64,000 nt of DNA. Source: Clostridia bacterium (GTDB lineage Bacteria; Bacillota; Clostridia; Lachnospirales; JAOARL01). This document shows, one piece after another, positions 13,342 to 61,717 of this stretch (position 1 is the first letter of the stretch; every line of letters begins with the position of its first letter). The notes beneath the pieces were generated by a model. It saw only the letters and a program-made list of their open reading frames with translations. It made no database searches and was not told where the DNA came from. Both the position numbers and the translations under genes were made by a program. The stretch covers positions 5,265 to 69,264 of the forward strand of contig JAOARL010000020.1 in assembly GCA_025210555.1 (NCBI GenBank), read 5' to 3'.

Positions 13342-13626
13342 ATGAGACTAACAAACTTTGAAATTCAATCAATAAAAAAGATAGTTGAAAATAGCGATGA
13401 TGAAGCAGAAGTATATCTTTTTGGTTCGAGAGTCGATAATGCTAAAAGAGGCGGAGATATAGATTTGTTAGTTCTTTCGGATAAATTAAAAAAGATGGAT
13501 ATATATGATATAAAAGAAAAGTTATATATTGAAATAGGGGAGCAAAAGATAGATATTGTTTTATCAAAAAAGGAAGTTGAAGATACTTTTGTTAAATATA
13601 TATTTGAAGAGGCGGTGAGATTATGA
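13342..13626 (+). CDS. minimal nucleotidyltransferase (MNT), antitoxin of a HEPN/MNT pair
   Basis: 94 aa; LFGSR-x10-GDIDLLV motif; ATGA overlap with next gene. Confidence 0.75.
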   Translation: MRLTNFEIQSIKKIVENSDDEAEVYLFGSRVDNAKRGGDIDLLVLSDKLKKMDIYDIKEKLYIEIGEQKIDIVLSKKEVEDTFVKYIFEEAVRL

Positions 13627-14066
13627 GTGAAAAAGAAAAAATATTACTCAAAGAAGAATTACAAAAGCTAAATAAAATGAAAAAGCATTTAAATTATTCA
13701 TATGAAACGTCTAAAGGTGTAATAAATAAAGTTAATAAAGATGAAACAGAGTTAGAAAAATTAGAGGCACTTACTTCTAGATTTGAGAGAATGAGTGACA
13801 TAATAGTACAAAAGATTCTTAGATTGATAGATGAAATAGAGCTTGAAAGAGAAGGTACAGTTATTGATAGGATAAATAAGGCTGAAAAGAGAGGGCTTAT
13901 AGATTCCGCAGAAAGATTTAAAAAAATTAGGAAGATAAGAAATGCGATAACTCATGAGTATATAGAGGATGAATTAGAAGAAATATATGTAATGGTATTT
14001 GAACTTATGCCAGACTTATTAGCTTCTGTAGAAAAAATAAATGATTATTGCAAGAAATACATATAA
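13623..14066 (+). CDS. HEPN-domain protein (HepT/DUF86-like toxin candidate)
   Basis: 147 aa; Rx4H motif in RKIRNAITHEY (R106..H111). Confidence 0.65.
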   Translation: MSEKEKILLKEELQKLNKMKKHLNYSYETSKGVINKVNKDETELEKLEALTSRFERMSDIIVQKILRLIDEIELEREGTVIDRINKAEKRGLIDSAERFKKIRKIRNAITHEYIEDELEEIYVMVFELMPDLLASVEKINDYCKKYI

Positions 14067-18929: not shown

Positions 18930-19394
18930 ATGGATGCAAAATTAATTGCTAAATGGTTTATATTTAGAAATGAACAAGATTTAGATGAAGAAAATATTGA
19001 GTGTATAACTAATTTAAAAATGCAAAAACTGCTTTATTATGCTCAAGGTGTATATCTTGCATATAAAGATAATGAGCTCTTTGGAAATGATATATATGCT
19101 TGGAATCATGGACCTGTTGTAAAAGAAGTTTATGATGAATATAAATCTTACGGTAGACAAGGAATTGATGTAGAAATATCAGAAGGTGAGAAAAGTGAAA
19201 TTTTAAAAGCAATAGGATTTAAAGAAGATTCCCTTGAAGTATTGGAAACGGTTTATAAGAATTATGCTAAGTACTCGGCTTGGCACTTAGTTGAAATGAC
19301 ACATAGCGAAAAACCATGGAAAGAGACTTATAAAGATGAGGTTATAAGTAAGCAGTTGATAAAAGAATATTTCAGAGAAGAAGTATTGGTTTAA
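18930..19394 (+). CDS. Panacea/DUF4065 (SocA/GepA-like) antitoxin-domain protein
   Basis: 154 aa; LKMQKLLYYAQGVYLAY...AWNHGPVVKEVY hallmark of DUF4065. Confidence 0.8.
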   Translation: MDAKLIAKWFIFRNEQDLDEENIECITNLKMQKLLYYAQGVYLAYKDNELFGNDIYAWNHGPVVKEVYDEYKSYGRQGIDVEISEGEKSEILKAIGFKEDSLEVLETVYKNYAKYSAWHLVEMTHSEKPWKETYKDEVISKQLIKEYFREEVLV

Positions 19395-27303: not shown

Positions 27304-28500
27304 ATGATAAGTGTAGGTATAGATGTATCGAAAGGTAAAAGCACTATATGTATACTAAAACCATATGGGGAAGTGCTCCAATCTGCAGTTGATATAGAGC
27401 ATACGGAAAGTGATCTCTTTGAATTAGTAACTAAGATAAAGAAATTTAGTGAAGAAGTAAAAGTTGTCATGGAAGCTACTGGAGCATATCATATGCCAAT
27501 TCTTATGTACTTAAATAATCAAGGTATATTTGTATCAGTGGTTAATCCGCTAGTCATGAAGAAGTATGGAGCTAAGAACTTAAGAAAAGGTAAAACGGAT
27601 AAGTTAGATGCTATAAAGATAGCTAAATATGGATTGGATAATTGGTTTGAACTGAAAGAATATAAATGTGAAGAGTTTAAGTACAAAGAGCTTAAAATAC
27701 TAGGTAGGCAATATGCGCATTACATTGGTATGAGAGTGGAGAGCAAGCAAACTATGAGCAAGATGTTAGATTATACAATGCCAGGAATAAAAAAACTTTT
27801 GAGTAATAACTCGCATAATCCTACAAGAGATAAGTTAAATGATTTTGTAGAGTGCTTTTGGCATTTTGATAATATAACAAAATATAGTGAAGAAGAATTT
27901 GTTGATGTTTATATAAAATGGGCAAAAGAAAAAAGATACCATCAAAGCGCTGCAAAGGCTAGAAAAATACATGCAGTAGCTATAGATGGCATCTCAACAT
28001 TAAGTTCTACTAATAATTCTACAAAATTATTAGTAGAAGAATCAGTTAGAGTTCTTCGCGAAATTGATCAAACTCTACTTAAAATTTTAACACAAATGAA
28101 AGAAATAGCAAAGACGCTTAAAGAGTATGATGTAGTAAGGGATATGGGAGGAGTAGGAGAAGTTTTAGCTGTTAGATTGATAGCTGAAATTGGTGATATT
28201 AATAAGTTTCATAGTAAAAAAGCATTGATTGCATATGCTGGAATAGATGCTCAGCCTTATCAGTCAGGACAATTTACAGGAGAGAGAAGAAGAATTTCTA
28301 AAAGGGGATCATCTGTATTAAGAAAAACAGGCTATGAAGTTATGGCAGCTTTAAAAACAGTTAAACCCAAAGAAGATTCGGCATATAAATACATATTAAA
28401 AAAAGAGTATGAAGGGAAGCCTAAGAAAGTAGCTAAGATAGCAGGATTGAACAAATTTTTGAGAATTTACTACGCGAGAGTAAAAGAAGTTTGTATGTAA
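27304..28500 (+). CDS. IS110 family transposase (DEDD recombinase)
   Basis: 398 aa; SD GGGAGG; MISVGIDVSKGKS N-terminus, MEATGAYH, C-terminal Transposase_20-like region (VGEVLAVRLIAEIGDINKF...AYAGIDAQPYQSGQ...ISKRGS). Confidence 0.9.
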   Translation: MISVGIDVSKGKSTICILKPYGEVLQSAVDIEHTESDLFELVTKIKKFSEEVKVVMEATGAYHMPILMYLNNQGIFVSVVNPLVMKKYGAKNLRKGKTDKLDAIKIAKYGLDNWFELKEYKCEEFKYKELKILGRQYAHYIGMRVESKQTMSKMLDYTMPGIKKLLSNNSHNPTRDKLNDFVECFWHFDNITKYSEEEFVDVYIKWAKEKRYHQSAAKARKIHAVAIDGISTLSSTNNSTKLLVEESVRVLREIDQTLLKILTQMKEIAKTLKEYDVVRDMGGVGEVLAVRLIAEIGDINKFHSKKALIAYAGIDAQPYQSGQFTGERRRISKRGSSVLRKTGYEVMAALKTVKPKEDSAYKYILKKEYEGKPKKVAKIAGLNKFLRIYYARVKEVCM

Positions 28501-44258: not shown

Positions 44259-45787
44259 AAAAAATAATAACGATGGTTATGATGTTTGCTGCTAGTTTTA
44301 TATTTGCTAATGCTAATACGTATGAAGATTATAAAGTAAATGTAAATGTAGCAAAAGACAATAAATACTATGTAGAAGAATCTTTTAATGTTTATTCACT
44401 TGAGGAAAAAATAAAAGTGAAAAATAAGTATGGATTTGATTATGTAAATGTCATAAGCAAGAATAACAACTACAAAGATCTAGAGTTTACAAATATAATA
44501 GTTAAACCAAAAAAACAAAATGATGAAGCTATAAATGAATATGAGCTATCATATACAATTGAAAAAGGAAGTGTTGATAACAAAGAAATAAGATTTAAAT
44601 TAGGACCATTTGATAAAGGTGTAAATAATTTAAATGTGTCACTTAGCTTAGCTAAGCCAATTGAATTAAAAAACGTTAAGGTATTAATAAATGGTTATAA
44701 AATAACAAAGGGGTTTTATTACAAAGACAGAAGATTTTCGCTAATAATCCCTAGTCTTCAAAAAAGTGATAGTGTTGAAATAAAAATAAAAGATAAAGAT
44801 TATTTTATAAAGGAAGATCAGTTTTTAAAAACAAAAATATATGCAGCTATATTTATAATAGTTATATTCATAATATTATATTTTATAAATAGAGAAAAAA
44901 ATGGAGCAATAGGAACGAAAGCAAAAACTTTAGAAGAAGAATATATAAGTCCTTTTTATATTACATATTTTTCAAGAAAAGATATTAAGTCATTAGATCT
45001 TATAAATCAAATGATTTATTGGGCTAATAATGGATATGTGAAAATTTACGAAAAGGAAGATGGTTATGTATTTAGTAAAATAAAAGCACCAAAAGATAAT
45101 ATGTTTGAAGAAATAGTTTTTGATGAAGTTTTTGGACATCAAAATGAAATTAATTCTGTGGATATTGAAAAAGCTATACATCATATAAAAAGACATCTAG
45201 ATATAAGGGTTGAAAAGTATTTTAATAATGATGCAAATAAAATACATGTATTTTCAGAGAATATATATAAGCTTATAGAATATGTTTTAATATTTGTAGC
45301 AACTACATACATTATGTCAGGATATATAAATATGTATCAGGAAGTAAATATGATTATAGCGGGAGCTGTAATAGCGGTAGGATCTGTTTGTATACCAATA
45401 AAAAGGATTAATAGGGATGAGATAGCTAAAGAAATTATAGAAGTAATTAGCTTCTATATAATTTTTAAAATTCTTTTTGGAATTCATACAATTGATTATT
45501 TAATAATAATAGCAGCAGGTAATTTAATATATGTAATGCTTAAAGCTATGGATGCATATACATACTTAGGCGAGAAAAAGAATGAAGAAATAATAGGTTT
45601 CAAAAAGTATTTAGAAACGTTAGAAGTTGATGAGTTTGAATTAAAATACTTACCATTTTTAAGAACTTTTGATATAGAAAAAGAATTTTTAAGTAGAATA
45701 AACATTGAAAAACCAGTATGGTTTGATGTTAAAGAATATGATAAAAACGAAATTTTAGAATTAAGTGAAGGAAAAGTTAAAAGATGA
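44255..45787 (+). CDS. multi-pass membrane protein, DUF2207-like layout
   Basis: 510 aa; signal peptide, ~190-aa extracytoplasmic domain, several TM helices; layout only. Confidence 0.4.
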   Translation: MKKIITMVMMFAASFIFANANTYEDYKVNVNVAKDNKYYVEESFNVYSLEEKIKVKNKYGFDYVNVISKNNNYKDLEFTNIIVKPKKQNDEAINEYELSYTIEKGSVDNKEIRFKLGPFDKGVNNLNVSLSLAKPIELKNVKVLINGYKITKGFYYKDRRFSLIIPSLQKSDSVEIKIKDKDYFIKEDQFLKTKIYAAIFIIVIFIILYFINREKNGAIGTKAKTLEEEYISPFYITYFSRKDIKSLDLINQMIYWANNGYVKIYEKEDGYVFSKIKAPKDNMFEEIVFDEVFGHQNEINSVDIEKAIHHIKRHLDIRVEKYFNNDANKIHVFSENIYKLIEYVLIFVATTYIMSGYINMYQEVNMIIAGAVIAVGSVCIPIKRINRDEIAKEIIEVISFYIIFKILFGIHTIDYLIIIAAGNLIYVMLKAMDAYTYLGEKKNEEIIGFKKYLETLEVDEFELKYLPFLRTFDIEKEFLSRINIEKPVWFDVKEYDKNEILELSEGKVKR

Positions 45788-46263
45788 AAATAAAATTAAT
45801 AAGTGTAGGTAAAATAAAAGAAAAATTTTATAGAGAAGCTATATCAGAGTTTGAAAAAAGGTTAACCAGATATTGTAAGCTTGAAATAGTTGAAGTAGCT
45901 GATGAGAAAACTCCGGATAATGCAAGTGATAAAGAAGAAGAAATTATTAAGAGCAAAGAAGCAGAAAAGATAAGTAAACATATTAAGGATGGAACTTATA
46001 TAGTAGCTCTTTGTATAGAGGGTAAACAATTGTCTTCAGAAGAGTTTGCAAGTACTATAAGTAAGTTAGGCAATGAAGGGAAAAGTGATATAACGTTTAT
46101 AATAGGTGGATCATTAGGTATACATGATAGTATAAAAAACAAAGCTAATTTGAAGCTTAGCTTTTCAAAGATGACATTCCCTCATCAAATGTTTAAAGTA
46201 GTATTATTAGAGCAAATATATAGATCATTTAGAATAACGGCTAATGAACCATATCATAAGTAA
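45784..46263 (+). CDS. rlmH: 23S rRNA (pseudouridine1915-N3)-methyltransferase
   Basis: 159 aa; SPOUT family; IGGSLGIHDS..., C-terminus ...NEPYHK typical of RlmH/OrfX. Confidence 0.9.
   Translation: MKIKLISVGKIKEKFYREAISEFEKRLTRYCKLEIVEVADEKTPDNASDKEEEIIKSKEAEKISKHIKDGTYIVALCIEGKQLSSEEFASTISKLGNEGKSDITFIIGGSLGIHDSIKNKANLKLSFSKMTFPHQMFKVVLLEQIYRSFRITANEPYHK
46247..46263 (+). repeat. direct repeat L: last 17 nt of rlmH (aaccatatcataagtaa)
   Basis: 15/17 identical to 47618-47634. Confidence 0.6.
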
Positions 46264-46265
46264 TT

Positions 46266-46295
46266 AAAGAGTGTAGAGATACACTCTTTTTATTT
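46266..46295 (+). terminator. intrinsic terminator
   Basis: 9-bp stem aagagtgta/tacactctt, loop gaga, T-run. Confidence 0.8.
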
Positions 46296-46407
46296 TGCTG
46301 ATAAAATAATATTTAAATGAATATAACAGTGTGATAAAATAAAAAAGAATTGATATTAAAGTATAAAGAATAAGGAAAAAGGTATATAAGAAATGTAGGT
46401 GGAGTTT

Positions 46408-47541
46408 ATGAGATTAAGTAGAAAGACAGAGGAGTTATTAATAGAGTTACTAAAAAATGAGGATAAGGGTAAATTAGGTGGTTACATAAGTGAATTGTAT
46501 AAGAATAAGTCCCATGCTGAAAAAACAGAAGTTAATCAGAGATTAGGTGATATTAAAAATAGCGGACTAGCTAATGTTCAATATGGAGATGATATTGCTT
46601 ATTTAGTGTCACTTACTCATAAAGCATATGATTATATTGAAGATAACAGATTATATATTAAACTTTTTGATAAGGATAAATTAATAGAGATTCTAAAAAC
46701 TATTGGTAGTTCAAATGGTATAAATAAGATATTGATATATGATATTGGAAGTTGTGGAAAGTCTCAGATTGGTTGGAGACAAAACGATGAGTATGAATGG
46801 CAAATAAAAATAGAAGCAATATCAGGCATGTTGTTAGTTAAACGTGTAGCAGGAGAAGTTGAAAAGGAAATGAGTAAGTATGGGTTCGAAGTGATTGAAA
46901 TAAATGATGATAATTCTACACCTAGGTTTAAGCGTTATATAAAATTTGCGCATGCATCAGTAATTCCTACGGAACCTATTCAATATGGTCAGAAACAAGT
47001 TTTTAACTTCGAAAATTTTTTTAATGATTTCATGAATTCTTGTATTAGGTTACAGGGAAATAAAAGAGCTAGTGAAGGGAACGAAGATGAAAAGACGACA
47101 TATATAAGGGATATGCTAAACGCAGCTAACTATAATGTCTTAGACCAAACTAAAAGAGGACAGTCTGCCACTGGTTTGCAAGCAGGAGAAGTAGATTTAT
47201 TAGTATGCGATTTAGAGTCAATTCCAACAGCAATAATTGAAGCGTTGGTCTTAGAATCAGTTGATTCAGCAAGTATTAAACTTCATATAGATAAATTGTC
47301 AGGTTATGATGCTAATGGTCTTGATAAGAATATTATTTTATCATATGTGTATATTGCTGATTTTAAGAGCTTTACAGAAAGATATAAAAGACATATTGGA
47401 GAAGCTAAGTTTAATTTTCCTTTGACTGACATTGAGGATATATCTAATAAACAATATAGTGAGATAAAAGTGATTAGTTCTAAGTTTAATAGAAGTGGAC
47501 TAGATAGAGAACTGTTTCATGTTCTCCTGAATCTAAAGTAG
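46408..47541 (+). CDS. hypothetical protein; C-terminal third may be PD-(D/E)xK-like
   Basis: Start moved to ATG 46408 (AGGTGGAG upstream); GEVDLLVCD...AIIEALVL resembles the GxxDhhh...hhhExK core but lacks the Lys. Confidence 0.5.
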   Translation: MRLSRKTEELLIELLKNEDKGKLGGYISELYKNKSHAEKTEVNQRLGDIKNSGLANVQYGDDIAYLVSLTHKAYDYIEDNRLYIKLFDKDKLIEILKTIGSSNGINKILIYDIGSCGKSQIGWRQNDEYEWQIKIEAISGMLLVKRVAGEVEKEMSKYGFEVIEINDDNSTPRFKRYIKFAHASVIPTEPIQYGQKQVFNFENFFNDFMNSCIRLQGNKRASEGNEDEKTTYIRDMLNAANYNVLDQTKRGQSATGLQAGEVDLLVCDLESIPTAIIEALVLESVDSASIKLHIDKLSGYDANGLDKNIILSYVYIADFKSFTERYKRHIGEAKFNFPLTDIEDISNKQYSEIKVISSKFNRSGLDRELFHVLLNLK

Positions 47542-47617
47542 ATTGAAAGAACAGTTCAGTTATAGTAAACTCTAGATTATTAAGTGAAGATGTATATAAT
47601 TTTTTAGAGTTAGTAGA

Positions 47618-47634
47618 AACCATATTATAAATAA
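47618..47634 (+). repeat. direct repeat R (aaccatattataaataa)
   Basis: Intergenic; 15/17 identical to the rlmH 3' end at 46247-46263. Confidence 0.6.
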
Positions 47635-47657
47635 ATTATTCTAACATAGGAGGAAAA

Positions 47658-47867
47658 ATGGCTACATATAAAAATATACAGAAATATGTTAAAGATAAAT
47701 ATGGAAATTCAATTAAAACTTGTTGGATCGCAGATATGAAAGAATACCATGGTTTGAAAAAAAGAATAGCACCAAATAGAATTTCAATGGATACAAAAAC
47801 AAATCCATGCCCAAAAGATAAAATGGATATGATAACAGAAGCATTTAAGCATTTTAATATGATTTAA
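47658..47867 (+). CDS. small conserved-looking protein, unknown function
   Basis: 69 aa; SD AGGAGG; YGNSIKTCWIADMKEYHGL...APNR...NPCP pattern. Confidence 0.55.
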   Translation: MATYKNIQKYVKDKYGNSIKTCWIADMKEYHGLKKRIAPNRISMDTKTNPCPKDKMDMITEAFKHFNMI

Positions 47868-47933
47868 TATTTGATATAAATGAATAATAGTGGTATTATA
47901 TTTCAGGATATTTAAGTTGAGGAGGAATATAAT

Positions 47934-48275
47934 ATGGAAAGTTTACCAAATTGTCCTAAATGTAAATCAGAATATGTATACGAGGATGGAAATATGTTAG
48001 TATGTCCAGAATGTTCATATGAATTTACTTTAGAGGAAGTTACTGAAGTTGAAAAAGTATATAAAGATGCTAATGGAAATGTATTAGTTGATGGGGATTC
48101 AGTAACAGTTATAAAAGATCTTAAAATAGATGGTTCTACAACAAATGTTGTAAAGAAAGGAACTAAAGTTAAAAATATAAGATTTATAGAAGAAGTTAAT
48201 GGACATGATATAGCTTGTAAGATAGATGGATTTGGAGCTATGTATTTAAAGTCAAAATATGTTAAGAAAAACTAG
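47934..48275 (+). CDS. yjdM: PhnA/YjdM family zinc-ribbon protein
   Basis: 113 aa; CPKC...CPEC ribbon, then SH3-like C-terminal domain ([12 protein letters not shown]...GTKVKNIR). Confidence 0.85.
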
Positions 48276-48297
48276 AGTTTATTCTAGTTTTTTTTAT
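48269..48297 (+). terminator. intrinsic terminator
   Basis: aactaga-gtttat-tctagtt plus T8; stop codon in stem. Confidence 0.7.
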
Positions 48298-48341
48298 TGT
48301 AATAAGGTATATTTAGAGTATAAAAATATAAGGAGTGAATT

Positions 48342-49172
48342 ATGTTAGAAAATTTAAAGAAATACTTGATGATTTTTACGGGAATATTTTTCCTAACATT
48401 AGCAATAAACAATGTTTTCATACCATTTAAAATATTAAGTGGAGGGATAACAGGATTTACACTTTTTGTGCACTTATTAACGGGTGCAGAAAAAGGAATG
48501 ACATTTTTTTTAATGAACATACCGCTAGTTATAATAGGCTTTATATTTGTAAATAGAAAATTTATGATAGAAACTTTTATAACTATGTTTACACTAAGTT
48601 TAGCTTTAAAATATGGAAGTAGTGTAGATTTAAATATACAATCAAGTTTAAATGCTATGTTTTTTGGTGGGGTTACTTATGGTCTAGGACTTGGAATTAT
48701 ATTTAAAACAGGCGCTTCAACAGGTGGAATAGATATTTTAGCTAAAATAGCTAAAAAATACTTTAACTATAGTATGGGAACGTTTCTTATAACGTTTAAT
48801 CTTATTATAGTTGCCTTATCAGCATACTTCTTTAATATTGATAGTGCTCTTAATACTATGATTGTTATACTTATATATGGACAAGTATCTAACTTAGTGG
48901 TTAGAGGATTTAATAGAGAATGTAATGTTTTTATTATATCTGAAAAAGAAAAAGAGATTGTAATGATGATAGAAAGTATATTTGGAAATGAACCAGTTGA
49001 AATCTTTGAAAAATATGCAGAAGATGAAGATACAAATAAGAAAATGATTTTCTATACTGTGAGATATAGTAAAGTGCCTATGCTTGAAGAAAATATAAAG
49101 GCAATTGATCCAGAAGCTTATGTAACAATCACTGAAACTCTTGAAGTTGTAGGAAAACAAAGACTTATATAA
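48342..49172 (+). CDS. YitT family membrane protein (DUF2179 C-terminal domain)
   Basis: 276 aa; ~5 TM helices, GGxTG motifs, soluble C-terminal domain. Confidence 0.7.
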   Translation: MLENLKKYLMIFTGIFFLTLAINNVFIPFKILSGGITGFTLFVHLLTGAEKGMTFFLMNIPLVIIGFIFVNRKFMIETFITMFTLSLALKYGSSVDLNIQSSLNAMFFGGVTYGLGLGIIFKTGASTGGIDILAKIAKKYFNYSMGTFLITFNLIIVALSAYFFNIDSALNTMIVILIYGQVSNLVVRGFNRECNVFIISEKEKEIVMMIESIFGNEPVEIFEKYAEDEDTNKKMIFYTVRYSKVPMLEENIKAIDPEAYVTITETLEVVGKQRLI

Positions 49173-61186: not shown

Positions 61187-61203
61187 AAGAGGAGGTGTTT
61201 GAT

Positions 61204-61413
61204 ATGTCTATTTCAATGAGACTAAAAGAAGAAGACGAATTACTTATTAAAAAATTTGCAAAAATGAATAATGTTTCTGTTTCTGAGCTAATAAGAAAAG
61301 CTGTAATGGAAATGATTGAAAATGAAATTGATATAAAAGCATTTAATAAAGCTGTAGCTGAAACTAAGGGAACGTACACGATTGATGAAGTTAAAAAGGA
61401 ATTAGGAATTTGA
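61204..61413 (+). CDS. ribbon-helix-helix antitoxin (RelB/DUF6290-like)
   Basis: Start moved to ATG 61204 (AGAGGAGG upstream); MSISMRLKEEDELLIKKFAKMNNVSVSELIRKAV. Confidence 0.7.
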   Translation: MSISMRLKEEDELLIKKFAKMNNVSVSELIRKAVMEMIENEIDIKAFNKAVAETKGTYTIDEVKKELGI

Positions 61414-61691
61414 AAAAACACTGGAAGATAAAATTTTCAGATGTTGCATTAAAATCTCTGAAAAAAATGGATAAGTTTACAGCAGCTATGATATTAGGGT
61501 ATATTGAAAAAAATTTAGGTGGATACATAGATCCAAGATCTATTGGTAAACCACTTGTAGGTAATCATAAGGATAAATGGAGATATAGAATTGGAAAGTG
61601 TAGGATTTTATGTCAAATAAAAGATGATGTAGTCACTATATATGTAGTTCAAATCGGTCATAGGAAAGATATATATAAATATGATAAGTAA
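61410..61691 (+). CDS. RelE/ParE family toxin
   Basis: 93 aa; TTG start overlapping antitoxin stop; WKIKFSDVALKSLKKMD...WRYRIGKCRILCQIKDDVVTIYVVQIGHRKDIY. Confidence 0.75.
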   Translation: MKKHWKIKFSDVALKSLKKMDKFTAAMILGYIEKNLGGYIDPRSIGKPLVGNHKDKWRYRIGKCRILCQIKDDVVTIYVVQIGHRKDIYKYDK

Positions 61692-61717
61692 AAAGCGCTA
61701 AAGATTTAGCGCTTTTT
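61691..61717. terminator. bidirectional intrinsic terminator between convergent genes
   Basis: aaaagcgctaa-agat-ttagcgctttt, with A-run and T-run on either side. Confidence 0.8.

Follow-up and report, generated by a model that had tools for sequence, protein, structure and literature searches.

Can the 3′ end of rlmH, a target of cassette elements in staphylococci and enterococci, also take up foreign DNA in the Clostridia? The question is raised by a 64-kb stretch of contig JAOARL010000020.1 from a Clostridia bacterium (hereafter the window, meaning the whole stretch analysed), where the last 17 nt of rlmH, AACCATATCATAAGTAA at 46247-46263, recur as AACCATATTATAAATAA at 47618-47634, on the same strand and with 15 of the 17 positions identical. 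This repeat had been singled out in an earlier reading of the sequence (the original prediction), and we confirmed both coordinates and the degree of identity. The att sites of the staphylococcal cassette chromosome (SCC) elements lie in the rlmH (orfX) 3′ end; the enterococcal cassette chromosome (ECC) elements integrate at the same gene, their att sites share the core TATCATAA, and remnants that retain attL and attR but have lost their genes occur among them (PMC6222049). We hold, with moderate confidence, that the segment between the two copies in the window is an SCC- or ECC-like, ccr-less relic at the rlmH end.

The left copy belongs to a full-length gene. Indeed, the RlmH match to PF02590 (Pfam) spans residues 1-158 of 159, and the source record also annotates 45784..46263 as RlmH. 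The reading frame and the stop codon of rlmH are kept at this border, as in SCC and ECC insertions, and the cargo starts 3 nt past the stop. The bracketed contents are those announced by the original prediction, one intrinsic terminator and one open reading frame (ORF, 46408-47541), except that the ORF encodes 377 aa, the earlier figure of 378 having counted the stop codon. The terminator is the sole terminator-like site in 45700-48400, where it is reported on both strands (shuffle mean 0.3). The two mismatches between the copies are both GC-to-AT transitions in the non-coding right copy (C to T and G to A), which, read in the rlmH frame, gives KPYYK*.

How often would such a repeat arise by chance? 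The far copy is the only match with at most 3 mismatches on either strand of the window. If the limit is raised to 4 mismatches, it is still without a rival over the 10 kb that follow rlmH, where the runner-up has 5. With independent, identically distributed bases (iid) at window frequencies, 0.0012 same-strand matches with at most 2 mismatches are expected in 2 kb. In the empirical null, 0.61% of the window 17-mers have a match of at least 15/17 within 2 kb downstream, and 0.69% when the 17-mers are restricted to those of equal A+T count. The chance probability of the repeat is thus about 0.001 (iid) to 0.006 (empirical); the repeat is statistically unusual, as had been claimed, and the earlier estimate of order 10^-3 is the optimistic end of this range. 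Among 90 long-ORF ends in the window, that of rlmH alone has a match with at most 2 mismatches. The + strand of the window contains 8.9% C and 20% G, and this asymmetry bears on any chance estimate for C-containing motifs; 60 of the 63 called genes lie on the + strand, and the GC skew is positive throughout the profiled 42-52 kb region. Many short two-copy repeats of similar quality are found in the 2.6-kb region itself, and the present one is noteworthy solely because the rlmH end is a target known in advance. Combining a chance level of 0.1-0.6% with a prior of about 1% for a recognisable cassette within 2 kb gives posterior odds of roughly 2:1 to 10:1 for a real att relic.

These figures leave room for a rival explanation, a plain chance resemblance, which we regard as possible though not probable. 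The far 17-mer would then be AT-rich spacer, possibly the -10 region of a promoter of the 69-aa gene that follows, and the 377-aa gene, perhaps with the 69-aa gene, could have come by homologous recombination via flanking genes or by the decay of a larger island in a generally variable stretch between rlmH and yjdM. An empirical rate of 0.6-0.7% per 17-mer is not negligible after a 64-kb scan for oddities, A and T make up 13 of the 15 bases in common, and a promoter-like arrangement read from the sequence, TTTAGA-17-TATAAA, overlaps the far copy (a promoter scan, with 20 sites versus 18.6 in shuffles, was uninformative). On the other side, the match includes AACC, for which the base frequencies, with C at 8.9%, give p ~0.0013, no other match in 10 kb comes closer than 5 mismatches, and the spacer that holds the match is the first one past the gene with the most atypical codon usage in the window. 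Its target is, moreover, exactly the known SCC/ECC attB.

Features of the rlmH locus in the window and of the comparable loci in other Clostridia
Feature	Coordinates	Strand	Genome	Basis and remarks
rlmH (23S rRNA pseudouridine-1915 N3-methyltransferase), 159 aa	45784..46263	+	window	PF02590 SPOUT_MTase, E 6e-61; ends EPYHK*
Left repeat copy, putative attL, AACCATATCATAAGTAA	46247..46263	+	window	last five rlmH codons and stop; has SCC/ECC core TATCATAA
Intrinsic terminator	46266..46299 (stem-loop 46266-46289)	+	window	10-bp stem, 4-nt loop, T-run; right after the rlmH stop, inside the bracketed segment
Cargo gene, 377 aa, candidate defence or conflict effector	46408..47541	+	window	homologue contexts, domain fusions
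Right repeat copy, putative degenerate attR, AACCATATTATAAATAA	47618..47634	+	window	in the 116-nt spacer from cargo gene to 69-aa gene
69-aa gene, function-unassigned small mobile gene	47658..47867	+	window	phrog_27283, E 2e-17; outside the bracketed segment
yjdM/phnA-like gene	47934..48275	+	window	PF03831, PF08274; first neighbour with conserved synteny
L012 cassette	L012:10462-11611		Bacillota bacterium OH_SBB_8 metagenome-assembled genome (MAG), JAFADP010000075.1	perfect 19-nt direct repeat GAACCGTATCACAAGTAAG
L065 island, 5.6 kb	L065:6621-12246		uncultured Eubacterium sp. MGBC106873	three att copies, terminal inverted repeats

The gene enclosed by the repeats is a horizontally acquired, foreign accessory gene, because its synonymous codon usage is atypical, its family is rare and patchy, and its homologues lie in defence or mobile-element settings. 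Its codon usage is the most atypical of the 54 window genes of at least 100 aa (rank 1/54), about 2.7 standard deviations (SD) from the mean, and usage this atypical usually suggests recent acquisition. The original prediction had seen it as slightly GC-richer; the difference turned out to be insignificant (0.307 versus a mean of 0.289, SD 0.025, rank 40/54). A search of 5.8 billion proteins yielded only 15 homologues, the full-length ones being 42-58% identical, and none of the 15 adjoins rlmH. Two of them (L086, L087) adjoin Shedu SduA_C, a type I restriction-modification S subunit and an IS21 element, a third (L088) adjoins three tandem tyrosine recombinase (integrase) genes, a fourth (L090) a HEPN_LA2681 protein, and two others (L083, L084) PIN-TPR-GreABC giants of ~1200 aa. 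Among viral contigs, neither the 377-aa protein nor the neighbouring 69-aa protein had a match. The presence of a foreign, defence-associated cargo exactly between the two copies adds support to the relic.

The cargo protein has no confident match in Pfam, PADLOC, NCBIfam or PHROGs, and a search of PADLOC-DB v2 gave nothing at E up to 1; it is from gene neighbourhoods and domain fusions that we consider it a candidate for a role in defence. The ORF is preceded by GGTGGAG. Its product is helical at the N-terminus and alpha/beta in the middle, and ends in a domain of ~185 aa (residues ~190-377) with a conserved GEVD...IIEAL...HIDK pattern. In a profile search, the C-terminal half (window 46975-47541) was recovered in 1282 cluster representatives at 50% identity, and the domain often ends Roc-COR (ROCO) GTPases and NACHT/STAND NTPases, which is suggestive of an effector role in conflict systems. 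The family of this domain has no Pfam model and no PDB match, and neither Foldseek against the PDB nor a profile search of PDB sequences retrieved anything. In the AlphaFold2 (AF2) model, which is confident (predicted local distance difference test, pLDDT, 85), the secondary structure elements follow one another as alpha, three beta strands, alpha, beta; this order and the residues D263, E278 and K296, which are invariant in the family, suggest by inference a PD-(D/E)xK-like nuclease. A reading of the cargo as a serine recombinase was rejected. When translated from an upstream GTG (46399-46430), the protein starts with MEFMRLSRKTE and mimics the motif Y/F-x-R-x-S-x-x-x-E/Q; this FMRLSRKTE motif is a false positive, with no resolvase match in Pfam and an AF2 fold that starts with helices, not with the beta-alpha-beta catalytic domain.

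Do such structures exist elsewhere in the Clostridia? We scanned the last 17 nt of each rlmH in a calibration set of 80 genome loci gathered by rlmH, and surveyed more widely 104 distinct rlmH loci of other Clostridia, 2 kb on each side. In the calibration set, two loci (L012 and L065) have an rlmH-end repeat with at most 2 mismatches; both repeats are perfect and lie downstream in the orientation of rlmH, whereas the upstream side and the reverse strand have none. In the wider survey, the best downstream match was perfect in one locus (L012) and had 3 mismatches in another and at least 4 elsewhere, and the best upstream match never had fewer than 4. Judged from these sequences, rlmH-end cassettes are real in the Clostridia, at roughly 1-2% of the sampled loci within 10 kb, and the existence of perfect analogues argues against a fortuitous resemblance in the window.

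The closest and clearest analogue of the window structure is L012. Its repeat encloses 1.1 kb with a single gene, which encodes an AraC helix-turn-helix (HTH) and GyrI-like/Cass2 regulator and matches Cass2, the 'integron-associated effector binding protein'. The genome has 28% GC, and murA lies upstream of rlmH as in the window. Just past the far repeat (L012:12499-15703), an MFS gene is accompanied by one for tetracycline ribosomal protection (NF012153, 964 bits versus a cutoff of 775), and no further repeat was found up to the end of the locus. The L065 island is larger and likewise recombinase-less; it encodes HTH_26, Big_2 and GmrSD_N-HNH proteins and a HEPN fragment. It begins with ATGAGGTTTT and closes with AAAACCTCAT and 17 nt, after which come, in order, an att copy with 3 mismatches, a 34-nt unit starting with ATGAGGTTTT, a perfect att copy and chromosomal DNA. 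This arrangement reads as the signature of site-specific tandem integration. A 128-aa ORF of the island that looked by eye like a serine-recombinase C-terminus was dropped, as phmmer and Pfam gave no confirmation. The three clear or candidate cases, the window, L012 and L065, are all without a recombinase.

The left end ATGAGGTTTT is also found right after the rlmH stop in a Roseburia contig (L013/L122, 10481-10556) that breaks 76 nt later, and the element end ATGAGGTTT, shared with L065, also follows a core copy outside rlmH in an IMG/VR contig (L105:3566-3583, the same as L199:2635-2652), with no recombinase in the 12 kb examined around it. The recurrence of ATGAGGTTT in the Roseburia and IMG/VR contigs may be a sign that Lachnospiraceae harbour a family of elements that target rlmH. 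Several other candidates were set aside. L022 has a large serine recombinase 6 kb downstream of rlmH and no rlmH-end repeat, and it was not counted; a 12-nt exact match in L014 sits in a coding region and was treated as chance; and an IMG/VR scan with the 18-mer GAACCNTATCAYAARTAA gave 24 matches, none of them in rlmH and about the number expected by chance on a rough estimate, and was not used, except for the L105/L199 match and for two matches on a single contig. This viral-flagged contig of 52.5 kb, IMGVR_UViG_2744054584_000001, has the two rlmH-end-like 18-mers on the same strand (L098:2073-2090 and L115:1145-1162) and no rlmH in the parts read; one of the two copies is flanked by a 340-aa accessory gene and a phage-repressor-like gene.

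How might the window segment have been formed? In the process that we propose, the 377-aa gene would have entered as a small circular cassette through site-specific recombination, at an attB made of the last rlmH codons (...CCA TAT CAT AAG TAA), the target common to SCC and ECC. The reaction would have been carried out by a Ccr-type large serine recombinase, presumably supplied in trans, as the cassette itself codes for none. Integration would have restored the rlmH end (EPYHK*), with the terminator of the cassette now following it, and produced another att copy on the far side; this far copy would later have gained its two GC-to-AT transitions, one of them within the TATCATAA core. In view of the mutated far copy, the cassette is probably a fixed relic rather than an active element. 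Under this scheme, the empty site should show GCTAATGAACCATAT[C/T]ATAA[G/A]TAA joined to ATTATTCTAACATAGGAGG, and the junction of the circle should show GAGTTAGTAGAAACCATAT joined to TAATTAAAGAGTGTAGAG.

A number of observations weigh against such a relic. The first concern the repeat itself. Its length of 17 nt was picked post hoc, the likeness of the two copies stops at 17 nt, and the longest exact run is 8 nt. The C-to-T change in the right copy alters the TATCATAA core to TATTATAA, at a position that is C in all three L065 att copies and in the L012 repeat. Moreover, strings of the ATATTATAAATAA type arise by chance in AT-rich spacers, and one chance-looking string, AGAAATATTATAAATAA, lies 69 nt downstream of rlmH in L039, a similarity that speaks for a fortuitous origin of the far copy in the window as well. 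The second concern the segment between the copies. If the segment is a cassette, the terminator of rlmH must be assigned to the element, and no inverted repeat pairs the two ends of 46264-47617, as would be seen in SCC and ECC. The third is the recombinase. As the original prediction had stated, the segment is recombinase-less, its single gene having no resolvase or recombinase domain (Pfam, phmmer), which sets it apart from elements with ccr. Pfam searches of the called genes over nearly the whole window and ~10 kb past its right end (~74 kb) detected no serine or tyrosine recombinase, and phmmer queries with the L022 large serine recombinase and the three L088 integrases had no match in the window. 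The lack of inverted repeats and of a recombinase in ~74 kb counts for a chance resemblance too. The SCC-like site-specific logic put forward in the original prediction is partly supported, by the unusual repeat, the foreign cargo and the analogues L012 and L065, and weakened by the degenerate core, the missing terminal inverted repeats and the missing recombinase.

Could the two copies have been left by another mechanism, for instance by a tyrosine-recombinase element now devoid of its integrase, by an integron-type cassette or by a transposon that makes long target duplications? We consider this very unlikely. The three tandem tyrosine recombinase genes beside the cargo homologue of L088, the Cass2 match of the L012 cargo and an IS110-family transposase at window 27304-28500 lend it some weight. 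Against these stand a right-end spacer (47542-47657) that folds no better than shuffles (z 0.34), with no attC-like hairpin, the failure to find intI or any other tyrosine recombinase in the window, and a target and core motif that fit the serine-recombinase SCC/ECC system. An integron-type origin was rejected on the first two of these grounds. Target duplications of 17-19 nt are atypical of transposons, and IS110 elements are not known to mobilise separate cassettes. The IS110-family gene (DEDD_Tnp_IS110 and Transposase_20) was the only transposase or recombinase gene found in the window.

Relatives of the host bear on the ccr-less relic through the history of the locus. All eight contigs read that carry the cargo gene share one context, and the one that was aligned, L082, is identical over 1851 nt. 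Beyond these, the next best RlmH among 5.8 billion proteins is 68% identical and the best in GTDB species genomes 67%, and the fast-evolving DUF2207 neighbour retrieved nothing from metagenome contigs. In metagenome contigs, rlmH was located at 80 loci; an identical rlmH-end junction is common to 52 of these, probably from one gut species, and none of the 80 has an rlmH-end repeat. The nearest relative found, with an RlmH 68% identical, is too distant to display an empty site or an alternative cargo, and the want of either also weighs against the relic.

The genes downstream of the far copy complicate its role as a border. The original prediction had taken the 69-aa gene at 47658 for a native neighbour; we found signs of mobility instead. 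Its product belongs to phrog_27283 and has 97 homologues, some of them archaeal or from Chloroflexi, and its closest relatives (77-81% identical) occur in three different settings, namely an integrative and conjugative element (ICE)-like region of Vallitalea guaymasensis, type III CRISPR RAMP genes, and ~1130-aa TPR proteins. This gene is independently mobile and not demonstrably native, so the far repeat is no clean divide between foreign and native DNA, a further point against the relic and in favour of a chance resemblance. The yjdM gene lies 4 kb (L055) and 6.6 kb (L046) downstream of rlmH in two Clostridium-like genomes with murA upstream of rlmH, where entirely different genes, without rlmH-end repeats, fill the interval. 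The rlmH-yjdM interval is therefore variable in general, and its filling without repeats is again in line with a fortuitous far copy. The 69-aa gene recurs beside a 76-93-aa gene and a ~1130-aa TPR protein (L196, L198), one database entry calls its product 'RNA methyltransferase' and looks misannotated, and no homology was found between the large TPR-containing neighbours of the 377-aa family and those of the 69-aa gene. A scan of the 10 kb downstream of rlmH found no third att-like copy past the 69-aa gene. Elsewhere in the window, Pfam identified an MNT/HepT-like nucleotidyltransferase pair (13342-14066), a SocA_Panacea protein with its partner (about 18930-19840) and a ParE toxin with a DUF6290 antitoxin (about 61200-61700).

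What would follow if rlmH ends did capture genes in the Clostridia? SCC elements spread methicillin resistance in staphylococci. They also spread phage defences there, as shown recently, and ECC act similarly in enterococci. A working capture at rlmH in the Clostridia would offer a predictable spot in which to seek defence and resistance genes that gut and environmental anaerobes have newly gained, and would direct attention to serine recombinases whose target site is conserved and portable and which could be of use in genome engineering. In its widest form, the idea is that the rlmH 3′ end is an attB common to the Bacillota, Clostridia as well as Bacilli, that serves tiny recombinase-less cassettes, with one or a few genes each, captured and shuffled in trans by large serine recombinases; we find this generalization doubtful. 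If it were true, the shared attB would be a platform for the capture of defence and resistance genes, functionally comparable to the integron, with the 377-aa cassette of the window, the AraC cassette of L012 (with the tet gene just beyond) and the GmrSD/HEPN island of L065 as instances. The window alone brings a smaller gain, in that a single uncharacterised protein with an effector domain is marked out as cargo of recent acquisition.

How does the window segment compare with known systems? The original prediction had presented the segment as an SCC-like signature outside staphylococci. As such this is not new, since ECC elements were already known at rlmH in Enterococcus (PMC6222049) and an SCCmec element is reported in Macrococcus (PMC8354543). 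No report of rlmH-end elements in Clostridia was found in the literature searched, which excluded subscription journals. The likeness to SCC lies in the insertion right at the rlmH (orfX) 3′ end with the gene end kept, in the putative att sites, imperfect direct repeats at both borders of which the left one has TATCATAA, and in the accessory, defence-like cargo. In staphylococci, tandem ccr-less SCC-like cassettes enriched in defence genes are documented, and they are excised by Ccr in trans (PMC11470126). The differences are that the host is a MAG from the Clostridia and not from the Bacilli, that the segment has one gene in 1.4 kb, compared with about 17 and 26 kb for tandem defence cassettes in staphylococci (PMC11470126), and that no ccr gene was found within ~74 kb, terminal inverted repeats are absent and the far core is TATTATAA. 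With respect to ECC, which carry ccrAB(Ent) and have att sites of ~50-bp direct repeats with internal inverted repeats (PMC6222049), the window copies share 17 nt and no ccr gene is seen in the window.

Two further comparisons place the segment more closely. Cis-mobilisable elements (CIMEs) are att-flanked remnants of integrative elements that lack a recombination module and need a recombinase in trans; to our knowledge, those described so far derive from tyrosine-recombinase elements of streptococci and use other target genes. The window segment resembles them in being a recombinase-less stretch between an attL-like and an attR-like copy, and, as in a pseudo-SCC, there is no recombinase inside and both att-like copies are present, the right one degenerate. 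It would work like a pseudo-SCC, lacking the ccr genes and the inverted repeats of a full SCC or ECC. With L012 and L065, it shares the rlmH end, a recombinase-less cargo and a second same-strand rlmH-end copy, and with L012 also the single-gene format (~1.1 kb in L012), a low-GC genome (28% in L012) and the upstream murA. Unlike the 15/17 repeat of the window, however, those of L012 and L065 are perfect over 17-19 nt, and L065 has in addition the terminal inverted repeats and the third att copy that the window lacks. The window element would be of a known kind, possibly extended to the Clostridia, and the perfect rlmH-end cassettes of other Clostridia are a more valuable result than the window case.

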